A stretch of 64,000 nt of DNA from NCBI GenBank assembly GCA_045863295.1, contig BTWA01000030.1:9914-73913 (forward strand), written 5' to 3'. Below are positions 25,525-40,544 of this stretch, piece after piece (position 1 is the stretch's first letter; each line of letters starts with the position of its first letter). The position numbers were made by a program, and so were the translations under genes. The stretch is from Candidatus Hydrogenedentota bacterium. GTDB lineage: Bacteria; Hydrogenedentota; Hydrogenedentia; Hydrogenedentales; SLHB01. The notes below the pieces were generated by a model. That model did not search any database and was not told the DNA's origin. It saw only the letters and a list, made by a program, of their open reading frames with translations.

Positions 25525-26427
25525 CTATTGCGTTACGGCGGCCTGCGCCGGATGCTTCTTTAGAAACGCCAGAATGGCTTCTGCAAACGCGGGATCCGCA
25601 ATGGTCGAGATGTGGTCCCCGCCTTCGATATAGATCGATTCATGCCGGCCCATGACACCGTTCATCCGATCCACCCCGGCACGTAACGGATCGTCAGCCC
25701 CCACGATGGAGAGCAGCGGCACGGAGTTCGCGCGCAATTCCGCCTCGGCTACCACGAGTCCGTCCAAGGCACGCATCACGTGCGCAAGCGCTTCGGTGTC
25801 GTTCGTGAGACTCAATGTGAAGTTGATTTGGCGAAGCACCCACCCCTCGGGGGCTTTGCCCGGCGGCGATATCGCCTCGAAAAGCGGCCCGAAATTGCCC
25901 GTGTAATCCAGCGCATTCGCAATGTCGTACCGTTCGGCCTCGCCACTTTCCGGGTCTTCCCATCCGGCGCCACCGGCTACCGCGGAGATGACGCGATCCG
26001 GATGGAGGGTGACCAGTTTGAGCGTAATGAATGCGCCCATGGAATAGCCGACCACATGTGCCTTGGGAATTCCCAGGTGATCCATCAGGCGAATCACGTC
26101 CTCGCAAAAGGGAAGGCCGTATGCGGATTCCTCGTGAGGCTTCTCGCTCAATCCGTGGCCGCGATTGTCGATGGCGATGACTTTGTATTCCTTCGCCAAC
26201 TTTTGCAGCACGCCCGGCTTGCGCCAATTCAGGTCGGCGTTGGCGGCAAACCCGTGAATCAGGATGAGTGGTTCGCCTTCGCCTTCCACGGTGAAGTGAA
26301 TGCGTATGCCGTCCGAGTCGAAAAACTCGCCGGCAACCCGATCGGTGATGCTGTGATAGAGGTACGCCAGGCCGGCCAGGAAAGCACAAGCGACGAGAAC
26401 GACAACTATGCCGATCTTGCGTTTCAC
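25525..26427 (-). CDS. Alpha/beta fold hydrolase with N-terminal anchor
   Basis: LIHGF, DNRGHGLS, GYSMG nucleophile, GADD, GDHI. GTG start with AAGGAGG RBS, about 25 nt downstream of the rSAM-GNAT gene. Confidence 0.88.
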   Translation of the reverse strand: MKRKIGIVVVLVACAFLAGLAYLYHSITDRVAGEFFDSDGIRIHFTVEGEGEPLILIHGFAANADLNWRKPGVLQKLAKEYKVIAIDNRGHGLSEKPHEESAYGLPFCEDVIRLMDHLGIPKAHVVGYSMGAFITLKLVTLHPDRVISAVAGGAGWEDPESGEAERYDIANALDYTGNFGPLFEAISPPGKAPEGWVLRQINFTLSLTNDTEALAHVMRALDGLVVAEAELRANSVPLLSIVGADDPLRAGVDRMNGVMGRHESIYIEGGDHISTIADPAFAEAILAFLKKHPAQAAVTQ

Positions 26428-26451: not shown

Positions 26452-28380
26452 CTATAAGTCGTCGACGGAAATCCCGTAGACGTGAACATCCTGGTATTCA
26501 TCATGCACGAACAGGGCTTCGCGAAGCGTGCCTTCGCGTTTGAACCCCAGCCCCTCAAGGAACGATTGCAGTCCCTTTTCCGGCGCCGATGCGGGAATGG
26601 TGAGCCTGCGCACGGCCTGCTGCTTGGCGGCTTCATTGAGCAGTGTCCGGAAACCGCGGCGTACGTCTTCCGCGAGATAGTCCTGGTCGTCCCGCATGTA
26701 AATCCAACCCTGGGCGGCGCCGTGAAACCGTTCCGGCCGCATCTTAATCAGGCCGAAGGGTTTGCCATCGCGTTTGACCAGGATCATTTCCTTGTCCATG
26801 CCATGGGGATGGAGCGCATCCATTTCACGGTCGTAGCGGGTGGTGATCATGATGCCGCGCTCGGTATAGAGGAAATAAGCCGCACTGTTCCAGTTCTCCC
26901 ACTCCATCAGCATGTCCGCGTCGGCTTCTTCAATGGGCCTCATGCCCACCGACATGCGGAACGCGGCACGCACAAGCGTGAATAGCGAGGGCTTCTCGGT
27001 CCGCGTAAACAAGTGGTACATGCGCGTGAAATTCACGCCCTCGGCGGACAACAAATTGAAAGCGGACACCGCCGATTCCGCCCACGCCCGCTGTGCGTTG
27101 CACCAGGTCTCGTGCGGCAAACGGAAGGAACCGCTCAACGCCTGGTGCACGGCCGCCGTACCGCCTCCGCAGACGTGGCGCGCCCAGCACCGGCGGCAAA
27201 CACCGGTAGTGACCGATCCGATTTCATCGAACCTCGAACGTGCCTCTTCGTCCAATCTGCCTTCGGCGAGTGATCCCACCTTGAACGCTTCCTGGCCCAA
27301 AAAGCGCCATGAAGGATACAACGCGCCATCGGCATCCACGGCCAGTTCATTGGTGCCGCTGGGATCGTTTCGTTTCAACGGCACGCCGTCGTAAATCCGG
27401 TAAAAGAACCCTGCTATGGGATCGACCCGGAAATAGTGATGTTTCAACAGGCGGTTCGCGTAATATACCGCGGATTCGCTGAGCGCCTTGCGCATGGCTT
27501 CCGGATCCAGCGACGGATCCGCGGCATAGGATCCGTCGAGATCCAATTCAATGTGCGTGAAACCAGCCTTGTCCAATGTCTCGACGACGCCCGCGAAGTT
27601 CGGATGTCCCGGTTGAAGCACGATTCTACCGGTCACGCCTTCGCCGCCGGGCTGCACCGCTTTTGCCAGTTTCGCAAGAGTCCACGGTCCGGGTTGCGCG
27701 AACGATTCGAATGCATCCAGTTGCGATTCGGTCTGTTTTACTTCCAGCACAATCGAGATCGTATGTCCTTCCAACGCGTCACCGGATTTGGCTAACGAGA
27801 GATTGAGTACTCGAATGGAAACCGTCGCGGTTTTTCCGGCGAGGCCCGCGGCTCTGATGGCCTGACGGGACAGGCTAATGATCAAATCCGGGCTCTGCAA
27901 CTGGCCTTCGGCAATCCATTCTAGTTGCAGCAGTTTTTGATCGGCCGCCCGGCCCAGCAAAAGATCTATTGCATCTCGGCCCAGCGTCCTCGCTTGAAAT
28001 GGGGCTTCGGATGTCTTGGCGCCGAACCAACCTTTCTTCTTCGCGGGCGGGTCTTCCACCGTTTCCACGCCGGGAAGGCGAACCGAAAGCTTCTTCAGGC
28101 CCTTTTCGAGTTCGAATTCCTTCTGGAGATCCTCTTTCTTGGCCGGCGGAAGGATGGCACGTGTGGACCGGAGCCACTCGAGTTCGCCGATGACCTCTTC
28201 CAATTCAGTTGTATCGTGTTTTCCGGCAAGTTCTCGCACAATTCGGTTAAGCGGCGTGTGCGGATAATACTCCAGCACATCCCAGGAGATGTCGTCGCAT
28301 TCGAAGCAAAAACAGGTTTCGGGATCGATGGCAAACCGGCGGCCGCCCTGGACAAAACGATGTATGAGCGCTTGCGTCAT
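26452..28380 (-). CDS. RRE + degenerate radical-SAM/SPASM + C-terminal GNAT fusion protein (putative RiPP maturase/scaffold)
   Basis: N-terminus IHRFVQGGRRFAIDPET...DDISWDVL resembles the RRE of ranthipeptide maturases. The core is collinear with rSAM (LGRDAIDLL, LQLEWIAEG) but lacks CxxxCxxC and GGE. SPASM-like LAVDADGALYPSWRF...CRRCWARHVCGGGT...WC. C-terminal GNAT MRPIEEAD...LGFKREGTLREALF. Confidence 0.8.
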   Translation of the reverse strand: MTQALIHRFVQGGRRFAIDPETCFCFECDDISWDVLEYYPHTPLNRIVRELAGKHDTTELEEVIGELEWLRSTRAILPPAKKEDLQKEFELEKGLKKLSVRLPGVETVEDPPAKKKGWFGAKTSEAPFQARTLGRDAIDLLLGRAADQKLLQLEWIAEGQLQSPDLIISLSRQAIRAAGLAGKTATVSIRVLNLSLAKSGDALEGHTISIVLEVKQTESQLDAFESFAQPGPWTLAKLAKAVQPGGEGVTGRIVLQPGHPNFAGVVETLDKAGFTHIELDLDGSYAADPSLDPEAMRKALSESAVYYANRLLKHHYFRVDPIAGFFYRIYDGVPLKRNDPSGTNELAVDADGALYPSWRFLGQEAFKVGSLAEGRLDEEARSRFDEIGSVTTGVCRRCWARHVCGGGTAAVHQALSGSFRLPHETWCNAQRAWAESAVSAFNLLSAEGVNFTRMYHLFTRTEKPSLFTLVRAAFRMSVGMRPIEEADADMLMEWENWNSAAYFLYTERGIMITTRYDREMDALHPHGMDKEMILVKRDGKPFGLIKMRPERFHGAAQGWIYMRDDQDYLAEDVRRGFRTLLNEAAKQQAVRRLTIPASAPEKGLQSFLEGLGFKREGTLREALFVHDEYQDVHVYGISVDDL

Positions 28381-29180
28381 CAGTAGGCCCCCAGCGTGCC
28401 TTTGCTGCGGCTGTGGTTCTCCATCAGCTTAAACAAGGTCAAGCCGATGGCAGTCCAGATGCCGCAGTTAATCATCAGAAAATAAAACGAAGGATGCGTG
28501 AAAATCGCGGTTCCCTCTCCTTCCATGAGCACCAGCTTCAGACAAATGGCCGCGTCGGTAATCGGTGCGACGTGCGCAAGGGCCTGCAACACAATCGGCC
28601 AATTGTACATGTCTTCCGTGATGGTCAGGGCGAGCCCAATAAGAATAAGTCGCAATATGACGGCGATTTCCCCCGTCTGCTTGAAGACCAGCACCAAACC
28701 TCCGCTCATGAATCCGAAACCGATCAGATTCAAATAGGTCAGCACAAGGAGTAGAACCGTCAAGGCGGGGCTCGCATGGATTTGGCTGTCAAAGGTGGCG
28801 GCTACCATGGCGATCATGATGGACCAGGTAACAATGCTCATGAAGGCGGCGACGCATGACCGTGCGAGAAAATTGGTGATGAGTCCATGCGGGCTCATAT
28901 ACATCTGTTCCAGTTCCCCTGAACGCGCCATACCCTGCAATCCGGATGTGAACAGTCCGATAATGCCGAAGGCAAACATGCCGATGACAAGTCCCAGCGC
29001 CTTGTCCGTGATGAACTGGGAATACTGATTCGGATCGACCGTGCCGCTCGACAACGCCATGATGATGCCCACAAGCATGCCGTATCCCATGATCATGCCC
29101 ACCATGGTCTTGAACCAATACCGGCGCATGATGATGAACCCGCGGACCAACTCCGCTTTCATGACCAAAAAGAAACCCAT
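28380..29180 (-). CDS. ABC-2 type exporter permease
   Basis: About 6 TM; ARSGELEQMYMSP; ends with SRSKGTLGAY. Start re-set to the ATG at 29180; stop overlaps the next start. Confidence 0.85.
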   Translation of the reverse strand: MGFFLVMKAELVRGFIIMRRYWFKTMVGMIMGYGMLVGIIMALSSGTVDPNQYSQFITDKALGLVIGMFAFGIIGLFTSGLQGMARSGELEQMYMSPHGLITNFLARSCVAAFMSIVTWSIMIAMVAATFDSQIHASPALTVLLLVLTYLNLIGFGFMSGGLVLVFKQTGEIAVILRLILIGLALTITEDMYNWPIVLQALAHVAPITDAAICLKLVLMEGEGTAIFTHPSFYFLMINCGIWTAIGLTLFKLMENHSRSKGTLGAY

Positions 29181-29229
29181 GTCTGCTCCCATTATTGAAC
29201 GCGCGGGCGGGGCAGCCGCCGCTATCTTG

Positions 29230-30252
29230 TCAAGCCGGTCCGTCCGAGGTAAGCCGCAGGAACACATTTTCCAGCGTCTGTTGCCGCTCGCGAATGGAGC
29301 GTAATTCGACGCGATCGCCGCGTAGCGACTCAATCAGCCGGTACAAGGCCTCCGATCGATCGGAGGGATCGGACGGAACTTGCACGCTCAAGATCGGTCC
29401 ATTTTCACTGGGCAGCGATTCAGCACCATGAATGCCCGGAATCGCGCGAAGGCTATCCAAGTCCGGCATGCGGTCAAGATGCAGTTCGTACGCCTGATCG
29501 GAAAAGACGTCCAGCAACTCCTCCGTCGGCTTGCACGCGATCAATTTGCCATTTTCTATGATCCCGATGCGATCGCAGAGTTCCTGAGCGACGCCCATGT
29601 CGTGCGTGGTGACCACTACACTCTTTCCTTGGGTCCGGGTCATCTCGATGATCTTGTCTTTGATGTTCCGGCTGCTTTGCACGTCCAAACCTGTGGTCGG
29701 CTCGTCCAGGAGGAGTACTTCGGGATCCGTGATCAGCGCAATGCATATGGCCAGCTTCTGCTTCTGGCCCCGGGACAGCTTCCGCACCTCCGTGTTCATC
29801 TTGTCTTTCAGTCCGATGAACTCGAGCAGTTGTTCGGACCGCGCTCGCAATACGCGACCGCGCACGTCCCGCAAATTACCGAAATAGGCGAGGTTCTCCA
29901 GTGGCGTCAACGGCCAGATGCACGTTCGCGTGCCTTCCAAGACAACGCCCAGCTTACGGAGAACCTTGAGCCGGTTCGACTCCACGTAGAGGCCGCCGAC
30001 ATACACCTCGCCGCTGCATGGCTTCACCAAGCCCGATATCATCTTCACGGTCGTCGTTTTGCCCGCGCCGTTGCGGCCCAGCAAACCGAAAATTTCGCCC
30101 CTGCGCACGCCGAATGACACGTCGTTTACCGCATGGACCGTTTTCCTGCGGTACCATTTGCGCACACCGGAATCCTCGTCACGGGTGAGCACGTGGCGGG
30201 TATGGAACACTTTGTTGATACCACGCAATTCGACGGTGAATTCGGCGCTCAT
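29230..30252 (-). CDS. ABC exporter ATP-binding subunit
   Basis: GRNGAGKTT, LSRGQKQK, LLLDEPTTGLD, TTHDM. Confidence 0.93.
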   Translation of the reverse strand: MSAEFTVELRGINKVFHTRHVLTRDEDSGVRKWYRRKTVHAVNDVSFGVRRGEIFGLLGRNGAGKTTTVKMISGLVKPCSGEVYVGGLYVESNRLKVLRKLGVVLEGTRTCIWPLTPLENLAYFGNLRDVRGRVLRARSEQLLEFIGLKDKMNTEVRKLSRGQKQKLAICIALITDPEVLLLDEPTTGLDVQSSRNIKDKIIEMTRTQGKSVVVTTHDMGVAQELCDRIGIIENGKLIACKPTEELLDVFSDQAYELHLDRMPDLDSLRAIPGIHGAESLPSENGPILSVQVPSDPSDRSEALYRLIESLRGDRVELRSIRERQQTLENVFLRLTSDGPA

Positions 30253-31013
30253 TTTGCTTGCTGCCTCGAGGGCATGTACACCTTGTCCATTTCCCGGGCG
30301 GCCAGTTCTGGATCGCCCAACTCGTCGACTTTCATCAGATACTCCAAATAGGCGATCTCGATGTCGCGCATGGCGTGAATGACCATGACAAGGACAAAGC
30401 TGTTGGTCACATGATACAAAACGCCCAGCAAGAGCGAGAATCCCACGAATTCCAGTGACACCATGAAGCTGTTCTCGAAAAAGTGCTTGTGCACGACCAC
30501 AAAAAGTGCCGCGACCACTACAATACCCGTGAACGCCGCCGCGTTTGCGGACATGAACTGTTCGAGAAACACAACCGAAAACTTCTGCGCGGAAACGCGC
30601 CAGATGAGTTCTTCGGCCACGGCCACCCCAAGGAAACGCAACAACACGATTGGACTGTCAACGGTAAAATTCCACAAATCGCCGAAGTCGAAGAAGTGGC
30701 TCCAGGCATCCTTGATCGAATTGTGTGTGATCAAAAGCGACAGGCCGAACACCATGTGTCCAGCCAACAATCCCAATCCGATATAGAGTGGCGAGACCAG
30801 TTGCCGCGAGAATACGTCGAGACACAGGGCAAAGTAGACGGCCAGCCAAAAAATGGGCGCTTGTATGAAAACATGCACTCTACGTATGCCACCGGTGGGT
30901 TGTTCCCCTTCCACGTACCGGTTACTGATCAGGGAAAAGACAACGTGCCCTCCGAGCAAGGCGAAAAAAGCGCCAACAGTCCAGCCCGGAATGGAGACCG
31001 CCTCGACGATCAT
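30249..31013 (-). CDS. CPBP (CAAX/Rce1/Abi) family intramembrane metalloprotease
   Basis: Multi-TM; AEELIWR (EExxxR), FVVVH (FxxxH), IHAMRD (HxxxN/D). Confidence 0.85.
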   Translation of the reverse strand: MIVEAVSIPGWTVGAFFALLGGHVVFSLISNRYVEGEQPTGGIRRVHVFIQAPIFWLAVYFALCLDVFSRQLVSPLYIGLGLLAGHMVFGLSLLITHNSIKDAWSHFFDFGDLWNFTVDSPIVLLRFLGVAVAEELIWRVSAQKFSVVFLEQFMSANAAAFTGIVVVAALFVVVHKHFFENSFMVSLEFVGFSLLLGVLYHVTNSFVLVMVIHAMRDIEIAYLEYLMKVDELGDPELAAREMDKVYMPSRQQAK

Positions 31014-31642
31014 TCCGCCGCCTCCGGCTGCACCCTTCGGTCTTCGATGTCGGCAATCATCGTCTTCAGATCGATCCCTTTCAGCTTGCGATGGAAACTC
31101 TCACGCAAAACTTCAAATTCGGATCGAAGCAGACCATATCCGTACATCTCGAACATTTGTCCATCCCGGGCCACGTGATCGGGTAACACCAATTCGCGTT
31201 TTGCCCCGGAGAGTTCGAAGTTTCGCCACGAACGGCTATTGAAGCCGTAAATGTAGATGTTGATGCGATGCATGTTCAGAATGTGGAAACAGTATTCAAG
31301 AACACGGTAAAACGAGATCGTTGCCAGCATACCGTTCCGCTTGGACTCGATAATGTACGAGTCGATATTGCAAGAACGGTTGCGCCAACTGATATTGACT
31401 ACACTGAAGAGTCCAAACGGCCCGTACTTGTTGGAATCCGCCACGAAATAGATCGTAGGGGGCATGGAATGCGGCGCGGAGCGGCCAAGCATGCCGACGA
31501 TTTGTTCGCGCACTTGGCGCGGCGAGCGCGCGGGATCCCCGTACAGAAAGCGTTGAAATGCGGGGTCCTGCATCCACGAGACCACCGTTTCCAAATCGTC
31601 GCGGTCCGCGCGACGTATAAACACACTAGACTTAAGCGCCAT
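31010..31642 (-). CDS. GNAT family N-acyltransferase (RimJ/RimL-like)
   Basis: IRRADRDDL, ISWRNRSC, YCFHILNMHRI, FNSRS, GAKRELVL, YGLLRSEF. Confidence 0.85.
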   Translation of the reverse strand: MALKSSVFIRRADRDDLETVVSWMQDPAFQRFLYGDPARSPRQVREQIVGMLGRSAPHSMPPTIYFVADSNKYGPFGLFSVVNISWRNRSCNIDSYIIESKRNGMLATISFYRVLEYCFHILNMHRINIYIYGFNSRSWRNFELSGAKRELVLPDHVARDGQMFEMYGYGLLRSEFEVLRESFHRKLKGIDLKTMIADIEDRRVQPEAAE

Positions 31643-31644
31643 GA

Positions 31645-32190
31645 TCAGGCCTCCGCCGCGGCGGGTGCGGCAAGGCGATCGTATTCCGGCCGCAACATGC
31701 CGAATCCGAGCAAATCCGCGGCCTTGCCGTTTTGCAGCAGATGTCCCCGGTACGTCACTTCTCGCTTAGCACCCATTCTAGCGAGCGCGGAAAGAGCGGT
31801 TGTGTCGGAGGCGGCCACACGCGTGGACACTCGATGAAGATTGAGTTCGTCGAAGCAATACCGGAGTAGACCCAGCCAACCATCAAACACAATATCTTCC
31901 GTGCGATGCGCGGGAATCACGTAGAGACTGGAGGCGCATTGACGATTGCGCCACTGCATTTCGTAGATGGCGGCGAGGCCCACCGGCTGGTCTTTGTCGT
32001 CAGTCAGCATAAAAAATCCGATGCCGGCATTCTGCGAATTCAGGGCACCACCCAGCAGTGCTATCGCCTGCGCACCGTGCTGACGCCAGGACCGCCGGCT
32101 GTCACCAAAGACAAACTCGCGGAACACGGGGTCCTCGGCCCATTCGAGGACATAGTCGAGGTCGGCCCGCTCAAGACGTCGCAAGCGCAC
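31645..32190 (-). CDS. GNAT family N-acyltransferase (RimJ/RimL-like)
   Basis: LRRLERADL, MQWRNRQC, YCFDELNLHRV, GAKREVT, FGMLRPEY; a paralog of the downstream GNAT. Confidence 0.85.
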   Translation of the reverse strand: MRLRRLERADLDYVLEWAEDPVFREFVFGDSRRSWRQHGAQAIALLGGALNSQNAGIGFFMLTDDKDQPVGLAAIYEMQWRNRQCASSLYVIPAHRTEDIVFDGWLGLLRYCFDELNLHRVSTRVAASDTTALSALARMGAKREVTYRGHLLQNGKAADLLGFGMLRPEYDRLAAPAAAEA

Positions 32191-32743
32191 TGTATCGTTC
32201 CTTGTAGGCTTCCAAATGTTGGCAGCGGGATCGGGGCAGCGAATGCGATTCGAGATCGTAGTAGCGGCCGTGAGTATAGATCATGTCCCGTTGAATACCA
32301 TCGCACACGAAACCGTGACGCACGAGAAACGCGCGGTACAATTCCTCTGTGGTCAGGCAACTGGTTTGAATCTTGTTGAGTTTCTTCTCGACAAACGTGC
32401 CGTATGCGATGAAACCAAATACTTCGTCGGCGAGGGGCTGGCCGTAATCGGACTCATCGGCCATGGCGAGCATCATTTCCGCGAACGCGGATTCCATCTT
32501 GGCGCTACGCATCACGAAACAACCCCGAATATCCCCTTGCAGATTCTCAACGACAAAGAAGACGCCGGAAAGAAAGTCTTTCCGGCCAAGCATTTCGCGC
32601 AATTCGTCCAATGTGGGGATGTAGATTTCCCGCGAAGGACCGATCAGGAATGAACGAGGCGATGACATATCGTACAACTGCCACAGGGCGTACGCGTCAT
32701 CGGGTTCGCTCGAACGGATTATGCCGTGTTCCAATGCAATCAT
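32171..32743 (-). CDS. GNAT family N-acyltransferase (RimJ/RimL-like)
   Basis: IRSSEPDDA, FVEKKLNKI, HGFVCDGIQRDMIYTHGRYYD. Confidence 0.8.
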   Translation of the reverse strand: MIALEHGIIRSSEPDDAYALWQLYDMSSPRSFLIGPSREIYIPTLDELREMLGRKDFLSGVFFVVENLQGDIRGCFVMRSAKMESAFAEMMLAMADESDYGQPLADEVFGFIAYGTFVEKKLNKIQTSCLTTEELYRAFLVRHGFVCDGIQRDMIYTHGRYYDLESHSLPRSRCQHLEAYKERYSALATS

Positions 32744-32919
32744 GATGCGTCAAATTCTATCGGTAATGGGTTGCCACAGACGGAAAAGCCGATTGAATCG
32801 CTGCCATGGGTCTGTTCCAACAATTATGCCCGAATCGAGTTGGCCAACACTACCCCGTGGGTGGCGTGCGCCTTCCAATCGGATGCAATGTCGCTTTTCC
32901 TCCGGCACTCGCCGCATTC

Positions 32920-32949
32920 AAAAAAAAGCGGGGTTGAAGCCAACCCCGC
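32920..32949 (-). terminator. Rho-independent terminator after the peptide genes
   Basis: Perfect 9-bp stem GCGGGGTTG/CAACCCCGC (32928-32949) with a 4-nt loop, followed on the minus strand by T8 (A8 at 32920-32927 on +). Confidence 0.85.
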
Positions 32950-32981
32950 GAAACGTCCCGTATGCAAACAGCGCCGTGCGG

Positions 32982-33194
32982 CTAAAAGAACAAACGCTCT
33001 TCGTCGTCTCCACCCGTGTCACCGCCGCCGTCTCCCCCGTCATCCGGGGGATCGACGATCCCGCCGCCACCAATGATAAAGTTCTTCTTGCCGAAAACAA
33101 CGTCGTAGTAGCCATTCAGGACGGCATTTACAAAATCGATGGCGGCCGTGGCTTCCAGGATCTTCGTTTTCGTTAGTTTGCGCACGTGCTTCAT
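32982..33194 (-). CDS. Putative RiPP precursor peptide A (70 aa)
   Basis: MKHVRKLTKTKILEA-TAAIDFVNAVLNGYYDVVFGKKNFII-GGGG plus acidic tail; GGAG RBS; leader shared with the two neighbours. Confidence 0.75.
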   Translation of the reverse strand: MKHVRKLTKTKILEATAAIDFVNAVLNGYYDVVFGKKNFIIGGGGIVDPPDDGGDGGGDTGGDDEERLFF

Positions 33195-33243
33195 GGACGA
33201 TCTCCAGACCGACCCGGCCGCGCCGGATCCGTCAGCACCCAGC

Positions 33244-33381
33244 CTATCCCTTCAGGCCACCGATGGAGTTCTTCGTGGAAAACAGGAAGTTCAACCATGC
33301 GTTCCAGAACGTATTCAAAAAGTCATCATACGAAGCGGCCTGACGTATCCGCGCTGCGGAAATGTTTCGCACATGTCGCAT
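33244..33381 (-). CDS. Putative RiPP precursor peptide B (45 aa, not in ORF track)
   Basis: Hand translation: MRHVRNISAARIRQAASYDDFLNTFWNAWLNFLFSTKNSIGGLKG*. GGAGGAG RBS 5 nt before the ATG; aligns without gaps to precursor A. Confidence 0.8.
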   Translation of the reverse strand: MRHVRNISAARIRQAASYDDFLNTFWNAWLNFLFSTKNSIGGLKG

Positions 33382-33479
33382 GAACACTCCTCCATGTAGT
33401 TCGTGAAATGGCGCTGACTACGGCAGCGTCATCACGGGTATCAGCGGTAATTCATAACCCCAACACGGCCGTATCGGCG

Positions 33480-33701
33480 TCAGGTATTCTCTTCCGGATT
33501 CTTCTCTTCGCTATACGCCGTGAGCGCGGCCAAGAACCCCTGCAAGCCAGTCACCGAGGCAGTGAAGATGGCGCTAAACGCAGTGACGAATACGGTTACA
33601 ACGTCAAAACCCAGCGTCAATATGGAGATTAGTACCTCCAGATTGGTCTGATCGGCCTCGGCACGTAACGGTTGCTTGGAAATCATGGTCAGGTGTTTCA
33701 A
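33480..33701 (-). CDS. Putative RiPP precursor peptide C (73 aa)
   Basis: TTG start with GGGAGA RBS; MKHLTMISKQPLRAEA leader, long hydrophobic Thr/Ser-rich core, EEKNPEENT end. Confidence 0.72.
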   Translation of the reverse strand: MKHLTMISKQPLRAEADQTNLEVLISILTLGFDVVTVFVTAFSAIFTASVTGLQGFLAALTAYSEEKNPEENT

Positions 33702-33910
33702 GGTGATTCTCCCGAAATACTGTCTTCTACCCTGTTGTAGAGCCCACCAGAATGTGAACCCCTCAACAGCTCAAAAGTTCCGCCACAACGCTGCACCAAG
33801 GACATCGCCCTGCGTGTGATCCACGTCCAGCAACGTTACAGCGGATTCTGCGGATGGTGCGTCAATAATTTACACCCACGCAGAGAACCGAGACCAACAC
33901 GCGTTCGACG

Positions 33911-33939
33911 AGTCTAGCACCAAACCATCCCGTTATCAA
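33911..33939 (-). promoter_or_regulatory. Sigma70-type promoter upstream of the peptide cluster
   Basis: Minus strand reads TTGATA, 17-nt spacer ending TGC, TAGACT; same TGC-extended -10 style as the rpoB, rpsL and tRNA promoters. Confidence 0.6.
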
Positions 33940-34112
33940 TGACATCAAATGCTTAACCGGGAATGGGTTAGCCCCCCGAAGAACTCCCGTACTATAGGGT
34001 CCCGCCTTATCCTACCGCAACGGACGTAAGCCGTTACGGTCTCGAAACGGGTACTACTGACGAGAAACACTTTACATCAACCCGGCAACGCGGTGCACAC
34101 AAAGGAAGTCCC

Positions 34113-35618
34113 TTAACGGACACCGGCAACTTCCACACTGTCGTACCCAAAGGATTGGGCGCTCGGAAGGTCCGAATGGCCCATCAGCCGAATATCAATG
34201 GCACGTGCGGCCTCACGGCCTTCGTGAATGGCCCAGACCACCAGCGACTGTCCGCGGCGCGCGTCGCCTGCCGCAAAGACATTGGGCTTGCTTGTGCTGT
34301 ACTGGCCGTATTCGGCTTTCACATTTCCACGTGGATCTAATTCCAGCCCAAGTTGTTTGGGCAAAACATGTTCGGGATGAACAAAGCCCATGGCCAAGAG
34401 CACCAGTTCACACTCAATCTCGAACTCGCTGCCAGCCACTTCCTTCATTTGCATCCGGCCCGAATCGTCTTTCACCCATTCGACACGGACCGCCTGGATA
34501 GCGCGCAATTTCCCGTTGCCGTCTCCCAGGAACTCCTTAGTAAGCACGCTGAAATCGCGGTCGCCCCCTTCTTCGTGGCTCGAAGACGTACGATAAATAA
34601 CGGGCCACAGGGGCCAAGGGGTTGACGGATTCTCGCCCTCGGGCGGACGAGGCAACAACTCCAACGACCACACGTGCTTCGCCCCCTGCCGCAGACTGGT
34701 GCCGAGGCAGTCGGAACCCGTGTCGCCGCCACCGAGAATTACCACGGTTTTGCCATTGGCCAAAATCGCGTTTTCTACGACTTCCTTTCCCGAAACCCTA
34801 CGGTTTTGCTGGGTCAGAAAATCCATGGCGAAGTGTACGCCGTCCAGTTCACGTCCGGGGATCGGGAGATCCCGGGGTTGGGTCGACCCTGTGGTCAACA
34901 GAATGGCGTCAAATTCTTTCTCCAACTCAGCGGCGGTGACGTCTTTGCCCACTTCCACGCCGCACCGGAAAATGACGCCTTCAGCGGCCATCTGCTTCAG
35001 CCGCCGGCGCACGACGTCCTTGTTCAGCTTGAAATCCGGAATACCGTACATCAGCAAGCCACCAGCCTCATCCGCGCGCTCGAAAAGGGTGACTGTATGG
35101 CCAGCCCGGTTCAGTTGTTGCGCGGCGGCCAACCCAGCCGGACCGGACCCAATTACCGCGACTTTCTTTCCGGTCCGGACTTCCGGCAACTCGGGATTGA
35201 TCCAGCCTTCCGCGAAGCCGCGGTCGGCGATGGAACGTTCGTTCAGTTTGATGGTGACGGGCGGATCCGTGATTCCCAGCACGCACGATGCCTCGCACGG
35301 CGCTGGGCACACTCGACCAGTAAACTCCGGGAAGTTATTGGTGGAAAGCAACGTATCCAAGGCGCGTTTCCAATCCAAATCCTTCACACCGTCGTTGAAA
35401 TCGGGAATGATGTTCCCCAGGGGGCAGCCGGACATGCAAAACGGGATGCCGCAATTCATGCAGCGGTACCCCTGCTCCTTCATTTTCGAATCATCGAAAT
35501 CCTGGAGGAACTCGTCCCAATGCTTTGTGCGCTCTTCTACAGGCCGGTACGACGGCGTTTCCCGCTTGTATACCATGAACCCTTTTTCTTTCGAGGGTCC
35601 ATTGTTATTTGACGGCAT
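34113..35618 (-). CDS. gltD: Glutamate synthase small subunit
   Basis: RCMNCGIPFCMSGCPLGNIIP, NNFPEFTGRVCPAPCE, GSGPAGLAAA, GGGDTGSDC, RRGQSLVVWAI. AGGAGG RBS before the ATG at 35618. Confidence 0.95.
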   Translation of the reverse strand: MPSNNNGPSKEKGFMVYKRETPSYRPVEERTKHWDEFLQDFDDSKMKEQGYRCMNCGIPFCMSGCPLGNIIPDFNDGVKDLDWKRALDTLLSTNNFPEFTGRVCPAPCEASCVLGITDPPVTIKLNERSIADRGFAEGWINPELPEVRTGKKVAVIGSGPAGLAAAQQLNRAGHTVTLFERADEAGGLLMYGIPDFKLNKDVVRRRLKQMAAEGVIFRCGVEVGKDVTAAELEKEFDAILLTTGSTQPRDLPIPGRELDGVHFAMDFLTQQNRRVSGKEVVENAILANGKTVVILGGGDTGSDCLGTSLRQGAKHVWSLELLPRPPEGENPSTPWPLWPVIYRTSSSHEEGGDRDFSVLTKEFLGDGNGKLRAIQAVRVEWVKDDSGRMQMKEVAGSEFEIECELVLLAMGFVHPEHVLPKQLGLELDPRGNVKAEYGQYSTSKPNVFAAGDARRGQSLVVWAIHEGREAARAIDIRLMGHSDLPSAQSFGYDSVEVAGVR

Positions 35619-38600
35619 GCTGAACCTCCTGAGCGACGGCCTTGCCATTGTCTCCACCGGCTTGCCGTTCCATTTCACGCAACACCCGCGCGTAATCGCG
35701 CGGCATCACCCGGACAAAGTGCTGAGACTCAGAAGTCCAGTTGTCGAGGATCCGCTTCGCCACGGTGCTGCCGGTGTACTGAACATGCCGATCCAGCATG
35801 TACTTCAAATCGTTCAGACTCTTTTCGTTCATCGGCTTCAAGTCAACAGACTCTTGATTGCACAGAATGGGAAAGGAACCGTTTGGGTCGTACACGAACG
35901 CAATGCCACCGCTCATGCCTGCCGCGAAGTTCCGCCCGGTCGGCCCAAGAATGGCCGCACGGCCGCCAGTCATGTACTCGCACCCATGATCGCCCACGCC
36001 TTCGACAACCGCCCAGGCGCCGCTGTTGCGCACGCAGAAGCGCTCGCCGCCAATGCCGCGAAAATACGCTTCTCCGCCCGTGGCGCCGTATAGGGCCACA
36101 TTGCCTACCACGATGTTCTGCTCGGGTGTCATGGGGCACTCGGCCGGCGGTGTCACAATAATCTTGCCGCCGGAAAGTCCCTTGCCGCAGTAGTCGTTGG
36201 CTTCGCCGGTCACGTTCAAAGTCACGCCTTTGATCGAAAACGCGCCAAAGCTTTGGCCCGCCTGACCTGTGCAATCGATCCACACGGTGTCTTCAGGCAA
36301 AGTGCCGGTTTCGAGACCGACCTTGTGAACGCGCGTCAATTCACTGGAAAGCATCGTTCCGACGGTACGGTTGATGTTCTTTATTTCCGTCGAAAACCGT
36401 ACCTTTTCAACTTGGTCGAAAGATGCAGCTGGTTTGAGCGCCGCGCTTGCACGCACAAGAAGGTCGTTGTCCAACGCCTTCTCCAGTCCGTGATCCTGGG
36501 TCTGGCTGTGATAAAGCGTCTCCCCTTTCCACGGCGTCTCCACATGAAGCAGGCGGGTAAGGTCGAGCTTCTTTGCCTTCCAGTGATCCGGCAGGGGGTC
36601 GTATTCGAGCCGGTCGGTGCGGCCGATCATTTCATTAACGGTGCGGAAACCGAGTTCCGCCATGATGGCCCGCACTTCCTCGGCAATGAAGAAACACAAA
36701 TTCACAACGTACTCGGGCTTGCCCGCGAATTTCTTGCGCAGTTCCGCATCTTGTGTCGCAATGCCGACCGGGCAGGTGTTCAAATGACACTTGCGCATCA
36801 TGATACACCCCGTCGCAATGAGCGGCAATGTCGCCATGCCCACTTCGTCGGCGCCCAGCAGGAACGCAATGGCCACATCGCGGCCGGTCTTAATCTGGCC
36901 GTCCGTTTGTACGCGAATTCGGCTTCGCAAATTGTTGGACACCAGAACCTGGTGGGTCTCGGAGAGGCCCAACTCCCACGGCAGACCCGCATGCTTGATC
37001 GAACTCAGGGGCGACGCGCCGGTTCCACCATTGTCGCCGCTGACAAGTACCAAATCGGACTTGCCCTTGGCCACGCCCGCGGCGACCGTACCCACACCCA
37101 CTTCCGACACGAGCTTCACCGAGATGTTCGCGTACTTGTTCGCGTTCTTCAGATCATGAATGAGTTGCGCCAAGTCTTCGATCGAATAGATGTCGTGATG
37201 CGGCGGAGGCGAAATCAATTCCACGCCGGGCGTGGAATAGCGAATGCGCGCAATCTCCGGGAACACTTTGTGCCCCGGCAATTCGCCGCCTTCACCGGGC
37301 TTCGCACCCTGCGCCATTTTGATTTGGAGTTCGTCCGCATTGACAAGGTATTCGTTGGTCACGCCAAAGCGGCCGGAGGCCACTTGCTTAATCGCGCTGC
37401 GACGCAGATCGCCATTGCCATCCGCCACGAATCGTTTTGGATCTTCGCCGCCTTCGCCGGTGTTGCTTCGGCCGCCGATACGGTTCATCGCAATCGCCAG
37501 CGTTTCGTGCGCTTCCTTGCTGATCGAACCAAACGACATGGCCCCCGTGCAGAACCGCTTCACGATTTCTTTCGCGGATTCCACTTCCTCGATAGGAACC
37601 GGGGTGCCTTTCTTGAACTTCAACAACGAACGCAGCGCGGCCAACGACCGGTTGCGATCATTGATGAGGGCGCTGAACTCCCGGAATTTCTCCTGGCTAT
37701 TCGCGCGCACGGCATGTTGCACCCGCGACACGGTGTCGGGGTTGTACATGTGAAATTCGCCGCGCCGGCGCCAGCGGTATACACCGCCCGGATCCAACTC
37801 GCGGGGCCGTGCATGCGCCTTCGGATACGCAATGGAATGACGCATGAGCGTCTCGCGGCACACGTCCTCCATCTCGATTCCGCCAATGCGCGAAGCTGTA
37901 CCCGCAAAGCATCGGTCAATCAGGATTGGGCCGAGGCCCAGGGCTTCGAAGATTTGCGCGCTTCGGTAGCTGTGCTGCGTCGAGATGCCGATCTTTGACA
38001 TCGTCTTCAGCATGCCCGCTTCAACCGCGTGAATGAAATTCGCGACGGCTTGCCCCGGTTCCTTTTCCACCAGGATTTCCCGTTGGAGTTGGTCCTCGAT
38101 CGTGGCGAAGGCGAGGTATGGATTCACCGCGCCCGCGCCGTATCCCGTCAAGAGGCAGAAGTGCATAACTTCGCGGGGCTCGCCGGATTCCACCACGATA
38201 CCGCAATGGCTGCGAAGCCCTTTGCGCACCAGGTGATGGTGCACACCGCCCGTCGCGAGCAAGCTCGGAATCGCGGCATTCTTTTCACCCACACCGCGAT
38301 CGGACAGCAGAAGGAGCGTGTACCCCGCTTGGGTAGCGGCTTCCGCCTCATTGCAAATGCGATCGAGGTGTCTCTCAAGCGCGCCAAAGCCCTCTTCCGC
38401 AGGAAACAGCGTCGAAATGACTTTCGTCTTCAGACCTGGCTTGTCCAAGTGCTTGATATAGTCGAGTTGCTCGTTCGTGATGATGGGCGACTTCAAATGA
38501 AGCTGTTGGCAGTCTTCCGGAGTCGCATCGAGCAGATTCTTCTCGCGGCCGATATCGGTTTCCAGCGACATGACGATTTCTTCGCGGATCGGATCGATCG

Positions 38601-40215
38601 GCGGGTTCGTCACTTGCGCAAACAACTGCTTGAAGTAATTGAACAGCAATTGCGGGCGATTCGAGAGCACGGCCAGCGGCGCGTCATTTCCCATCGATCC
38701 GAGCGGCTGCTTGCCTTTCTCGGCCATGGGATTGATGATGATCTCGATGTCTTCCAACGTGTAGCCGAATACCTGCTGTTGTTCGAGCAACGGCGCTTCG
38801 GCAACGGCGGCCTTGCCATTCGACGGCGGACACGACGCCGGCAGCACATGGCGGTGCAAATCCAGCCACGCACGGTAGGGTTTGGCCTTGCCGTACTTTT
38901 CCTTCAATTCCTCATCATTGACGATCCGCTTTTCTTCGGTGTCGATGAGGAACATGCGGCCCGGTTCAAGCCGGCCCTTCTTGATAATTTTTTCCTGCGG
39001 CACATTAAGCACGCCGACTTCGGAGGCCATCACCACAAAGTTGTCGTTCGTGACCCAATAGCGCGACGGCCGCAGGCCATTGCGATCGAGCAACGCGCCG
39101 ATCTGCACACCGTTGGTAAACGCAACCGACGCGGGCCCGTCCCACGGTTCCATTTTGCAGGCGTGATATTCATAGAACGCCTTGCGCCAATCCGGCATTT
39201 GGGGATTGCCGCTCCACGGCTCAGGCACCAGCATCATCATGGCATGGGCTGCGTCACGGCCGCCCAGCATGAGCAACTCAAAGGTAGAGTCGAATATCGC
39301 GGAGTCGCTGTCGCCTTCCTTGTGAATAGGCGCCAGCTTTGCGATATCGGCGCCAAACAGGCTGCTGGCGAGATCCGTTTCGCGCGACCGCATCATATTC
39401 ATATTTCCGCGCAACGTATTGATTTCGCCGTTGTGCGCGAGATAGCGGAACGGGTGGGCCAACGGCCACGACGGAAACGTATTCGTGCTGTACCGCTGGT
39501 GCACCAGCGCCAGGGCGCTTTCCGTGTCCGGATTCTTCAGATCCTGATAGTAGCTGCCCATCTGCGCGGCGAGCATCAGTCCCTTGTAAACTACCGTGCG
39601 CGAGGACATGCTCGGTGAATAAAACTGCGCGCGCGAGGGAATATCGGAGGTATAAATCTTTTTCTCGGCAACCTTACGGATGACATACAGCTTGCGTTCG
39701 AACGCATCCTGATCCAGGCCTGCTGCCCGCTGGATGAAGACCTGCTGCATGACCGGCTCATTCTGGCGTGCAAGCGATCCAATCTTGCTCGAATCGCGCG
39801 GCACGTCGCGCCAGCCCAATACGGTCTGTCCCTCGGCTTTTACAGCTTCCTCGACAATGGCAATACACCGTTTGCGATCCGCGTCGTTGTGCGGCAGGAA
39901 AATCATACCCGCCGCATACGCGCCCTGATCCGGCAACGTGAATTTCAGCCGTTCCGCCTCCTTCTGGAAGAGTTTATGCGGCGTCTGAATCAGAATGCCG
40001 GCGCCATCGCCCGTTTCCGGGTCGCAACCGCATGCGCCGCGGTGTTCCAGATTCTCCAGCACGTGGATGGCCTGGGCCAGAATGTCGTGGGTAACGCGGC
40101 CGTCAATGTTCGCCACAAACCCGACGCCACACGCGTCGTGCTCGGTAAACGGCTCGTACAGCCCGTCTGTGGATGGTTTCCGTGGATACAAGGTTTTACG
40201 CCCACCTTTCTTCAT
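35605..40215 (-). CDS. gltB: Glutamate synthase large subunit
   Basis: EHDACGVGF, HQRYSTNT, AHNGEINT, GAMSFGSIS, AQGAKPGEGG, CHLNTCPVGIATQ. Start uncertain (40215 chosen). Confidence 0.96.
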   Translation of the reverse strand: MKKGGRKTLYPRKPSTDGLYEPFTEHDACGVGFVANIDGRVTHDILAQAIHVLENLEHRGACGCDPETGDGAGILIQTPHKLFQKEAERLKFTLPDQGAYAAGMIFLPHNDADRKRCIAIVEEAVKAEGQTVLGWRDVPRDSSKIGSLARQNEPVMQQVFIQRAAGLDQDAFERKLYVIRKVAEKKIYTSDIPSRAQFYSPSMSSRTVVYKGLMLAAQMGSYYQDLKNPDTESALALVHQRYSTNTFPSWPLAHPFRYLAHNGEINTLRGNMNMMRSRETDLASSLFGADIAKLAPIHKEGDSDSAIFDSTFELLMLGGRDAAHAMMMLVPEPWSGNPQMPDWRKAFYEYHACKMEPWDGPASVAFTNGVQIGALLDRNGLRPSRYWVTNDNFVVMASEVGVLNVPQEKIIKKGRLEPGRMFLIDTEEKRIVNDEELKEKYGKAKPYRAWLDLHRHVLPASCPPSNGKAAVAEAPLLEQQQVFGYTLEDIEIIINPMAEKGKQPLGSMGNDAPLAVLSNRPQLLFNYFKQLFAQVTNPPIDPIREEIVMSLETDIGREKNLLDATPEDCQQLHLKSPIITNEQLDYIKHLDKPGLKTKVISTLFPAEEGFGALERHLDRICNEAEAATQAGYTLLLLSDRGVGEKNAAIPSLLATGGVHHHLVRKGLRSHCGIVVESGEPREVMHFCLLTGYGAGAVNPYLAFATIEDQLQREILVEKEPGQAVANFIHAVEAGMLKTMSKIGISTQHSYRSAQIFEALGLGPILIDRCFAGTASRIGGIEMEDVCRETLMRHSIAYPKAHARPRELDPGGVYRWRRRGEFHMYNPDTVSRVQHAVRANSQEKFREFSALINDRNRSLAALRSLLKFKKGTPVPIEEVESAKEIVKRFCTGAMSFGSISKEAHETLAIAMNRIGGRSNTGEGGEDPKRFVADGNGDLRRSAIKQVASGRFGVTNEYLVNADELQIKMAQGAKPGEGGELPGHKVFPEIARIRYSTPGVELISPPPHHDIYSIEDLAQLIHDLKNANKYANISVKLVSEVGVGTVAAGVAKGKSDLVLVSGDNGGTGASPLSSIKHAGLPWELGLSETHQVLVSNNLRSRIRVQTDGQIKTGRDVAIAFLLGADEVGMATLPLIATGCIMMRKCHLNTCPVGIATQDAELRKKFAGKPEYVVNLCFFIAEEVRAIMAELGFRTVNEMIGRTDRLEYDPLPDHWKAKKLDLTRLLHVETPWKGETLYHSQTQDHGLEKALDNDLLVRASAALKPAASFDQVEKVRFSTEIKNINRTVGTMLSSELTRVHKVGLETGTLPEDTVWIDCTGQAGQSFGAFSIKGVTLNVTGEANDYCGKGLSGGKIIVTPPAECPMTPEQNIVVGNVALYGATGGEAYFRGIGGERFCVRNSGAWAVVEGVGDHGCEYMTGGRAAILGPTGRNFAAGMSGGIAFVYDPNGSFPILCNQESVDLKPMNEKSLNDLKYMLDRHVQYTGSTVAKRILDNWTSESQHFVRVMPRDYARVLREMERQAGGDNGKAVAQEVQHAVK

Positions 40216-40544
40216 CAAGAGAATTAGGCAGTTAGAGTTGGCCTGCTCGTCCTGTGTAACCTGGACTTGGTACATGTTGCCCAGCACAGCGAACCAGGAC
40301 CCTGCCGTCAGGCAGCGCATCGCTACCGAAAATATATACCCGAAACGTTCGTGTTTCCGGCGAAACCCTTGCGAGATCCGGACCGGCGAGCAGGAGCTAC
40401 AACTCCTTGCTAATACTCATCTTAAGTCATGTCGCACGAACCAATTCACGCCGTAGCCACGCGTCGCAGCGGCATGACCTCCCTTCGCGATCAGCTCACA
40501 CGCATCGCGAAAAAAGCGGGCTAAACAGAAGAATCCGTCGGAAG

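Follow-up and report, generated by a model that had tools for sequence, protein, structure and literature searches.

A 64,000-nucleotide stretch of the Candidatus Hydrogenedentota contig BTWA01000030.1 (positions 9,914 to 73,913 of the forward strand; the window below) carries on its minus strand, at 33244..33381, a 45-codon frame that lies next to a similar short frame, called peptide A here, and upstream of a cassette of acetyltransferase, protease and transporter genes. The question raised by this locus is whether so short a frame is a gene at all and, if it is, what the cell would use its product for. Comparison with related genomes indicates that it is a real, translated and strongly conserved gene, and that it is this genome's canonical copy of a peptide family, named type A in this work, which is specific to the phylum Hydrogenedentota. 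The reading we favor, to which we give a probability of about 0.72 judging from sequence and gene content, is that the 45-amino-acid (45-aa) peptide is the precursor of a peptide made on the ribosome and modified after translation (RiPP) that is handled by the downstream cassette. It would probably be acylated on a conserved lysine, trimmed and exported, and the lysine acylation is much less certain than the precursor reading itself.

The 45-aa gene and its paralogue

The features on which this part of the argument depends are the following.
33244..33381, minus strand: 45-aa type A peptide gene, with the N-terminal M-R-H-V-R-x-I-S, a helical body rich in Trp/Phe, K37-N38 and a tail of 7 residues
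33387..33393, minus strand: Shine-Dalgarno-like GGAGGAG, 5 nt before the ATG of the 45-aa gene
32982..33194, minus strand: peptide A, a 70-aa divergent type A paralogue in which W-x-A-W is lost and KKN is followed by 33 Gly/Asp-rich tail residues

Reading of the minus strand confirmed an open reading frame (ORF) of 45 aa with its ATG at 33381 and its stop at 33246..33244. The program-made ORF listing gives the same frame as 33244..33387 (-), 47 aa, from an upstream GTG, and 45 residues are counted from the ATG; the hand translation and the GGAGGAG ribosome-binding site that the earlier note had reported for the minus strand are borne out. The GGAGGAG lies at 33393..33387 (-) with a 5-nt spacer to the ATG, and GGAG-like sequence also stands before most of the orthologues. 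Since all 73 collected members of the type A family begin with M-(K/R/A/D)-H, ATG 33381 rather than the upstream GTG is taken as the true start. The AlphaFold2 model of the product is a single helix over residues 2-41, with a mean predicted local distance difference test score (pLDDT) of 77.

The similarity between the 45-aa frame and peptide A amounts to 15/42 identities without gaps in BLASTP (E 1e-10, as a single comparison) and to 16 ungapped identities over 45 positions in a pairwise alignment, a value that none of 200,000 shuffles of the 45-mer reached. The gap-free alignment described in the earlier note, with every shared residue listed there, was recovered (M1, H3, V4, R5, I12, A15, D20, F21, N23, N27, F34, K37, N38, I40 and G42), and G45 could be added. 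Scored against the type A family profile, the 45-aa ORF reached 68.9 bits (E 2.5e-18 within its own genome) and peptide A 62.9 bits. Because the 45-aa ORF keeps the W-x-A-W motif in the 27-sequence family alignment, whereas peptide A has lost it and gained a Gly/Asp-rich tail, we regard the 45-aa ORF as the more canonical member. The Gly-Gly in the tail of the 45-aa peptide is not a family cleavage motif, there being no conserved Gly-Gly column among the 27 aligned type A sequences. We also observed that the Gly/Asp-rich tail of peptide A ends in hydrophobic residues, and that tandem duplication of type A genes recurs in several lineages (genomes G071-G073, G077, G078, G083 and G042).

Spread and selection of the type A family

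A word-indexed protein search with the two window peptides returned only those two, the index being too coarse for 40-mers. In the collection searched, peptide A is recorded from a 73,913-base contig and the 45-aa protein solely from one of 3,333 bases, an indirect hint that annotation of the longer contig missed the frame. A profile built from the two sequences and run in six frames matched 54 of the 61 related genomes at E <= 1 (the own genome included), many of them at 1e-6 to 1e-11, and the ORFs beneath these matches are 38-59 aa long and follow the pattern M-K-H-I-R-x-I-S..R-A-D-A-F-T-D-F-x-N-A-x-W-R-A-W-x-D-F-x-Y-A-K-K-N-E with a few tail residues. The final type A profile, made of 27 aligned sequences (the two window peptides and 25 from related loci), gave matches at E <= 1e-3, with relatives of 39-48 aa, in 109 of the 135 Candidatus Hydrogenedentota genomes, among them 77 of the 86 high-quality ones; one family, labelled f3, is nearly devoid of it (1/14 genomes). 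A HMMER search of 1.84 billion representative proteins at the same threshold gave 74 type A clusters, all but one of them 30-87 aa in length. The family has a shape in which a fixed octapeptide M-K-H-(I/V/L)-(K/R)-x-(I/V)-(S/T) is followed by a variable linker (3 to ~25 residues), a conserved helix A-D-A-x-x-D-F-x-N-x-x-W-x-A-W-x-D-F-x-(Y/F)-x-K-K-N-E and 2-7 tail residues, and the 27-sequence alignment holds no conserved Cys.

Nei-Gojobori counts were made on close pairs of type A genes that were picked after the data had been inspected. Synonymous and non-synonymous differences were 19 and 1 for L023-L024 (dN/dS not computable, the synonymous sites being saturated), 4 and 0 for L016-L018 (dN/dS 0), 14.5 and 6.5 for L042-L044 (0.06), 21.5 and 13.5 for L011-L015 (0.08), 6 and 3 for L012-L017 (0.13), and 14.5 and 22.5 for L008-L009 (0.31); in more distant pairs the synonymous sites are saturated. 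These counts indicate that type A peptides are under strong purifying selection as proteins. The earlier note had taken the paralogy as strong evidence that both frames are real genes, and had named a profile search of related genomes and dN/dS across homologs as ways to check it. The claim has survived both checks, with the frame kept in 109 of 135 genomes and with close pairs showing a dN/dS of 0.06-0.31 or a synonymous excess, that is, purifying selection.

The contig titles of the 80 related loci described below name Candidatus Hydrogenedentota or Hydrogenedentales, and some third-party assemblies are labelled Nitrospiraceae/Nitrospirales. The cassette, whose other carriers all have records titled Hydrogenedentota, also occurs in third-party metagenome-assembled genomes titled 'uncultured Nitrospiraceae/Nitrospirales' (L060, L068, L079, L080, L084, L087, L088 and others), whose titles may be mislabelled.

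Co-inheritance with an enzyme cassette

The gene order on the minus strand of the window is gltB, gltD, a 73-aa ORF, the 45-aa ORF, peptide A, three GNAT acetyltransferases, a CPBP protease, an ABC ATPase, a presumed permease and a 642-aa protein, with the following features beyond those given above.
33480..33701, minus strand: third array peptide, 73 aa, TTG start, with M-K-H-L-x-x-I-S-K-x-P-x-x-A, a hydrophobic helix and K-N-P near the C-terminus
32171..32743, minus strand: GNAT1, 190 aa, Acetyltransf_4, the first enzyme gene after the peptides
31645..32190, minus strand: GNAT2, 181 aa, Acetyltransf_3, an additional copy restricted to the closest genera
31010..31642, minus strand: GNAT3, 210 aa, Acetyltransf_3, the best-conserved cassette enzyme
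30249..31013, minus strand: CPBP/Rce1-like intramembrane protease, 254 aa, PF02517 (E 8.6e-9), in 19/20 loci (L027 ends before it)
29230..30252, minus strand: ABC transporter ATPase, DrrA-like, 340 aa, TIGR01188 (E 2.7e-70), without a peptidase domain, in 19/20 loci
28380..29333, minus strand: presumed ABC-2 type permease, 317 aa as listed, after the ATPase in 18/20 loci
26452..28380, minus strand: 642-aa fusion protein with an RRE-like domain (3-93), a radical-SAM-like barrel without CxxxCxxC, a SPASM-like domain that keeps four Cys, and a GNAT at the C-terminus (~472-642)

Two sets of loci were compared with this order. The peptide-selected set comprises 20 loci, from 20 of the 53 other related genomes with matches; GNAT1 comes next after the peptide in all 20, GNAT3-CPBP-ABC follow in 19, and the permease and the 642-aa protein in 18, the exceptions being L027, which ends at a contig end, and L034, in which neither the permease nor the 642-aa protein was matched. 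The second set, 80 loci, was selected by GNAT3 and hence independently of the peptide. Here a type A ORF was found in 63 loci, all 68 matches without exception share the strand of the enzyme genes, and the last type A start stands a median of 279 nt upstream of GNAT1 (196-609) in those 63. The 17 loci without type A divide into 3 cut by contig ends, 4 without GNAT1 upstream, 7 with GNAT1 and no peptide gene, and 3 with other motif peptides (L090, L108 and L116).

When presence of the peptide (E <= 1e-3) was set against that of GNAT3 (E <= 1e-40) in the 135 genomes, which are related and therefore not independent, 107 had both, 2 the peptide only, 9 GNAT3 only and 17 neither; in family f3, peptide and GNAT3 have been jointly lost in most members. 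By these counts, the small gene is co-inherited with modifying, protease and export genes, as is generally expected of a RiPP precursor.

The glutamate synthase pair gltB/gltD (34113..40320, minus strand) lies directly upstream in the window and adjoins the cassette in 10 of the 20 peptide-selected loci; in L034, gltBD and cassette are divergent, and no functional link to gltBD is evident. The genes downstream of the cassette (an alpha/beta hydrolase at 25525..26427, a 459-aa ORF and further ORFs) were considered as cassette members and set aside, since tblastn found no match for them in 20 related loci. Some genera have the peptide array at a site unlinked to the enzyme genes (L127 and L130, in genomes G136 and G135), and the large ORF beside the unlinked array has a start that presumably resembles glucan phosphorylase.

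A peptide array with a common N-terminus

The loci have 1-5 small ORFs upstream of GNAT1 that begin M-K-H-(I/V/L)-x-x-(I/V/L)-(S/T), most of them preceded by GGAG-like sequence, and type A is always the last of them. Searched as ORFs of 25-130 aa in 819,444 bases, the motif occurred 182 times on the enzyme strand versus once on the opposite strand, and 3 of the 182 are clearly false, lying inside other genes. Among the non-A peptides, four or more body types can be told apart, including hydrophobic helices and a two-Cys type, so that the N-terminal motif is common to 190 unique array peptides with at least five body types; orthologues of the 73-aa window peptide were seen in L029, L030, L031, L037 and many GNAT3-selected loci. 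The pattern is that of a recognition segment shared by paralogous precursors with differing bodies, as far as sequence can tell. In the non-A types, P11 and A14 are each present in 95 of 117.

A second common feature lies near the other end. A Lys occurs after residue 14 in 189 of the 190 unique array peptides, with a median tail beyond the last Lys of 5 residues in type A (n=73) and 6 in the other types (n=117); in the bodies of the non-A peptides the median number of Lys is one. After this conserved Lys come N, E, D or T and a polar tail, and in the 45-aa ORF the corresponding pair is K37-N38.

No Pfam or NCBIfam match was found for the three window peptides, and none of the NCBIfam peptide models matched the 27 type A and 12 other array peptides at E <= 10, in a search whose HMMER filters drop many weak matches. 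The ESM Atlas gave no usable match. Conserved Cys occur in a single array type, which has two of them (C-x-N-I-x-S-D-Y-Q-A-L-L-C-F; L058, L062, L065, L072, L081 and others) and may be a leftover substrate of the once-radical maturase, or may form a disulfide.

Cassette enzymes and exporter

GNAT3 is present in 116 of the 135 phylum genomes (E <= 1e-40), and its profile matched SpeG/diamine N-acetyltransferases (E 3e-14), AAC(6') and RimJ/RimL in the PDB, all of which are amine acylating enzymes. GNAT2 was found as a separate gene in 5 of the 20 peptide-selected loci (L027-L031), and second GNAT3-like matches were seen in the phylum-wide GNAT3 profile search; a cassette carries 2-3 stand-alone GNAT genes. 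The translated CPBP gene shows E-E-x-x-x-R, F-x-x-x-H and H-x-x-x-D, which we take to be the catalytic motifs of the CPBP family. No Pfam or NCBIfam match was obtained for the presumed permease, whose role is suggested by its position; its listed TTG start overlaps the ATPase gene by ~100 nt, and the true start is probably further downstream.

The largest cassette protein is the 642-aa fusion, for which a model folded with 19 sequences reached a mean pLDDT of 79.8. This model aligned with the SCIFF maturase CteB (5wgg_A) at Z 26.2 and a root-mean-square deviation of 3.6 over 389 aligned residues, model 3..445 on chain 1..450 (Foldseek E 4e-17), and the sequence profile matched PDB 5wgg at E 8e-22 over the SPASM part; the NCBIfam matches over 341-439 (ScfB-related and TIGR03974) are far below cut-off. 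Residues 3-93, which form three strands and then three helices, align with the N-terminal domain of CteB and TigE. According to PMC8326336, the N-terminal domain of CteB is a RiPP recognition element (RRE) that binds the CteA leader as a beta-strand. Since CteB aligns from residue 3 and anSME, which is without an N-terminal RRE, aligns only from residue 94, residues 1-93 would correspond to the RRE of CteB. Pfam PqqD did not match the 642-aa protein at E <= 0.01, and the predicted presence of an RRE-bearing protein in the cluster is thus a statement at the level of the fold. We observed a C-x-C-x-x-C at 23, 25 and 28 inside the third strand of the RRE-like domain, which might bind a metal or a cluster.

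The radical-SAM motif CxxxCxxC is absent in all 19 orthologues of the 642-aa protein, and the loop at its place (107-124) is Cys-free and of low confidence in the model. The conserved Cys are C23 (17/19), C25 and C28 in the third RRE strand and C395, C398, C404 and C427 in SPASM. A radical crosslink on the conserved Trp/Lys, as in streptide, was considered as the modification and set aside, the motif being absent in 19/19 orthologues. The fused GNAT domain (~472-642) aligned with RimL/SpeG at Z 16-17, and RimL, SpeG, AAC(6'), MccE and a lasso-peptide acetyltransferase together lie at Z 15-17. The protein descends from a SCIFF-type maturase. Complex prediction of the 642-aa protein with the peptide, run without controls, gave ipSAE values of 0.02 and 0.02 against a mark of 0.32, which speak neither way on binding.

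Transcription signals

Two further features concern expression of the locus.
32920..32949, minus strand: terminator-like hairpin (32949..32928) with a 9-bp stem, 7 G-C pairs and a 4-nt loop, then T8, between peptide A and the first GNAT
33911..33939, minus strand: upstream of the array, a weak match to a sigma-70-like promoter (TTGATA, 17 nt, TAGACT)

Within 32700..34150, promoter- and terminator-like sites are no more numerous than shuffled sequence would give (for sigma-70-like sites, 1 found versus 1.1 expected). The hairpin carries weight because its position is conserved in relatives: 15 of 21 loci have, 50-76 nt past the last peptide stop, a T-tract hairpin whose energy is at least as strong as -17 kcal/mol. 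Such a hairpin between peptide and enzyme genes would yield more peptide transcript than enzyme transcript, which is the usual balance for structural peptide genes. Across genera, the hairpins past the last peptide (L027-L046) have a common CCGGGG…CCCCGG-like stem, and they may do more than terminate, for example as a conserved attenuator or a protein-binding site. Rfam searched on 32700..34150 gave no match at E <= 1, and no known riboswitch or leader RNA was found.

Proposed function and alternative explanations

That the 45-aa peptide is a precursor had been proposed in the earlier note, and this remains the best-supported reading, given its adjacency to the cassette, the shared N-terminal motif, and the joint gain and loss with the enzymes. 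On this reading, the shared N-terminal motif would dock on the RRE-like domain of the 642-aa protein, which, with its radical-SAM cysteine motif lost, may act as a scaffold with a GNAT domain of its own. One or more of the SpeG/RimL-like GNAT domains would then acylate an amine, for which the Lys ~5-6 residues from the C-terminus is the strongest candidate; the CPBP/Rce1-like membrane protease may trim the peptide, at the leader or at the tail, and the ABC-2 type transporter would export it. Near phylum-wide inheritance points to a physiological role, as a signal or an envelope component, more than to a strain-level antibiotic. A more specific version of this scheme, which we consider speculative and quite unlikely as a whole, is that of a vertically inherited, phylum-wide pathway for C-terminally lipidated helical peptides, a bacterial counterpart of CaaX processing, in which GNATs on a dead CteB-derived, leader-reading scaffold would acylate the Lys ~6 from the C-terminus, CPBP would cut the polar tail by the acyl-lysine, ABC-2 would deliver the product to the envelope, and type A would be the core housekeeping product.

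Several observations weigh against the precursor reading. Type A is conserved over its full length, whereas most RiPP families vary more in the core than in the leader, so it might serve some separate purpose instead of being a usual substrate; it is also without the P11 and A14 positions of the other array peptides. In 7 of the 80 GNAT3-selected loci, GNAT1 is present with no peptide gene upstream, and 9 genomes have GNAT3 and no type A match. Four of five checked genomes whose cassette locus lacks an array peptide have the array elsewhere, often with two tandem type A genes, and in one of these, a split-cassette genome, type A stays with GNAT1, beside gltD. A GNAT encoded beside peptide genes can also serve to protect its own cell, and the structural matches do include MccE. 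The choice of acyl donor, acceptor residue and cleavage site is conjectural. The N-terminal motif used to count array ORFs was written after the data had been seen, as were the pairs of the selection test chosen. Among sequencing runs containing the locus there is no RNA run; the DNA runs are sludge and bioreactor metagenomes, and the contigs from four of them are short and identical over the covered parts save one letter in one 151-base contig, with no variant listed.

As a rival explanation, the peptide might be an unmodified secreted helical peptide, bacteriocin- or pheromone-like, that is exported after leader removal, while the GNATs and CPBP protect the producer by acetylation of the peptide or its target and by Abi-type immunity. 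A CPBP protein and an ABC transporter beside small peptide genes are a common bacteriocin layout, and this account would fit the predicted single helix, the hydrophobic helices of other array members, the resemblance of the fused GNAT to the microcin C immunity acetyltransferase MccE (Z 15.4) and the radical-SAM-like protein without its catalytic motif. However, antibiotic peptides are usually patchy, and this system occurs in 109/135 phylum genomes, mostly syntenic; three or four GNAT domains and an RRE-bearing scaffold exceed the needs of immunity, and the near-universal C-terminal-proximal Lys in every peptide type suggests a common enzymatic target. We regard this account as unlikely.

Rather more doubtful is the proposal that type A is a small regulatory or accessory subunit, one that might sit on the RRE or a GNAT as a competitor or adaptor, and that the variable upstream peptides are the true substrates. 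Its full-length conservation, its place as the last gene before GNAT1, its different N-terminal region (variable linker, no P11) and its staying with GNAT1 in the split-cassette genome would all be expected of such a subunit, as would the fact that no other array member is present in almost every genome. Nevertheless, type A has its first eight residues and its C-terminal Lys in common with the other types, it duplicates and diverges like a product gene both here and in other lineages (tandem pairs), and the terminator-like hairpin that parts it from the enzyme genes in 15/21 loci is typical of structural peptide genes. The simplest objection, that a frame of 45 codons is short enough to be a chance ORF or an untranslated spacer whose similarity to peptide A is a DNA-level duplication without coding function, has a probability that we consider close to negligible: no shuffle in 200,000 reached the observed identity, the changes among orthologues are mostly synonymous, genomes throughout the phylum preserve the frame with its start and RBS-like sequence, and the spread of the family over 109/135 genomes contradicts it as well.

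Comparison with known systems

Under the precursor reading, the SCIFF system CteA-CteB of Clostridia (PDB 5WGG) is an obvious comparison, as CteB is the closest structural and sequence relative of the 642-aa protein. In both systems a short peptide gene lies beside a maturase gene, and both are lineage-wide rather than sporadic; PMC8326336 describes SCIFF as lineage-wide in Clostridia. Unlike the SCIFF maturase, the 642-aa protein is without CxxxCxxC (19/19), has only the four conserved SPASM Cys, and carries a GNAT fused at its C-terminus. The peptides differ too, type A being without conserved Cys and without a match to the SCIFF peptide model, and the cassette has extra GNATs, a CPBP protease and an ABC-2 exporter. 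A PDB sequence search with the peptide profile gave chance-level matches alone (E ~1 or higher) and no CteA-like peptide chain, so a link between the type A leader and the SCIFF leader is unsupported.

By analogy, the cassette would work most like a GNAT-type RiPP pathway, that is, like those of the selidamides and other GNAT-acylated RiPP lipopeptides (KspN/PhaN/NpuN; lipolanthines, goadvionins, lipoavitides, lipolasso), in which GNAT genes also lie beside precursor genes. As described in PMC8784127 and PMC13647313, the sites at which GNATs acylate RiPPs are Lys/Orn side chains or N-termini, and the peptides of this cassette similarly offer candidate Lys acceptors at an end of the core. The pairing of a GNAT maturase with a precursor that marks selidamides is seen here with three stand-alone GNATs and one fused domain, and the latter resembles the lasso-peptide acetyltransferase 9iy3 (Z 15.3). 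In contrast to selidamides, the precursors are not of NHLP/Nif11 type and have no conserved Gly-Gly junction; the cassette is without lanthionine synthetase, arginase and C39 peptidase, and it has several GNATs, one of them fused to a dead radical-SAM scaffold. The cassette is thus without features that define each of these two groups, in that the NHLP/Nif11 leader, the Gly-Gly junction, the radical-SAM motif and a Cys-rich precursor are absent.

The scheme of a double-glycine bacteriocin with a C39-peptidase ABC exporter does not fit, as no Gly-Gly is conserved and the ATPase has no peptidase domain. CaaX processing (Rce1) and the Abi/CPBP proteases of peptide-signal and bacteriocin loci, such as MroQ in AgrD maturation, resemble the cassette in that it has a CPBP/Rce1-like protease (PF02517) beside small peptides with a conserved residue a few positions from the C-terminus, but there is no cysteine or prenyltransferase here, and the tail after the Lys has 2-15 residues, not 3.

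Significance

No description of this cassette was found in literature searches, which did not cover subscription journals. The cassette unites parts that are not known to work together, namely several amine-acylating GNAT domains, an Rce1-like protease, and a relative of ranthipeptide maturases that has lost the radical-SAM motif and kept the leader-binding domain. Short genes are routinely left out of annotations, and the one treated here is the most conserved member of an array that fronts a cassette present in most genomes of this uncultured phylum; for annotation, the type A profile is of direct use, as it finds the peptide in 109/135 genomes. If the peptides are acylated and trimmed, they would form a new RiPP class. 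If this proves true, type A would be a rare RiPP conserved at the level of a phylum, like pyrroloquinoline quinone (PQQ), mycofactocin or SCIFF, and the 642-aa protein would illustrate the way in which a radical enzyme is put to new use as a scaffold that presents substrates.

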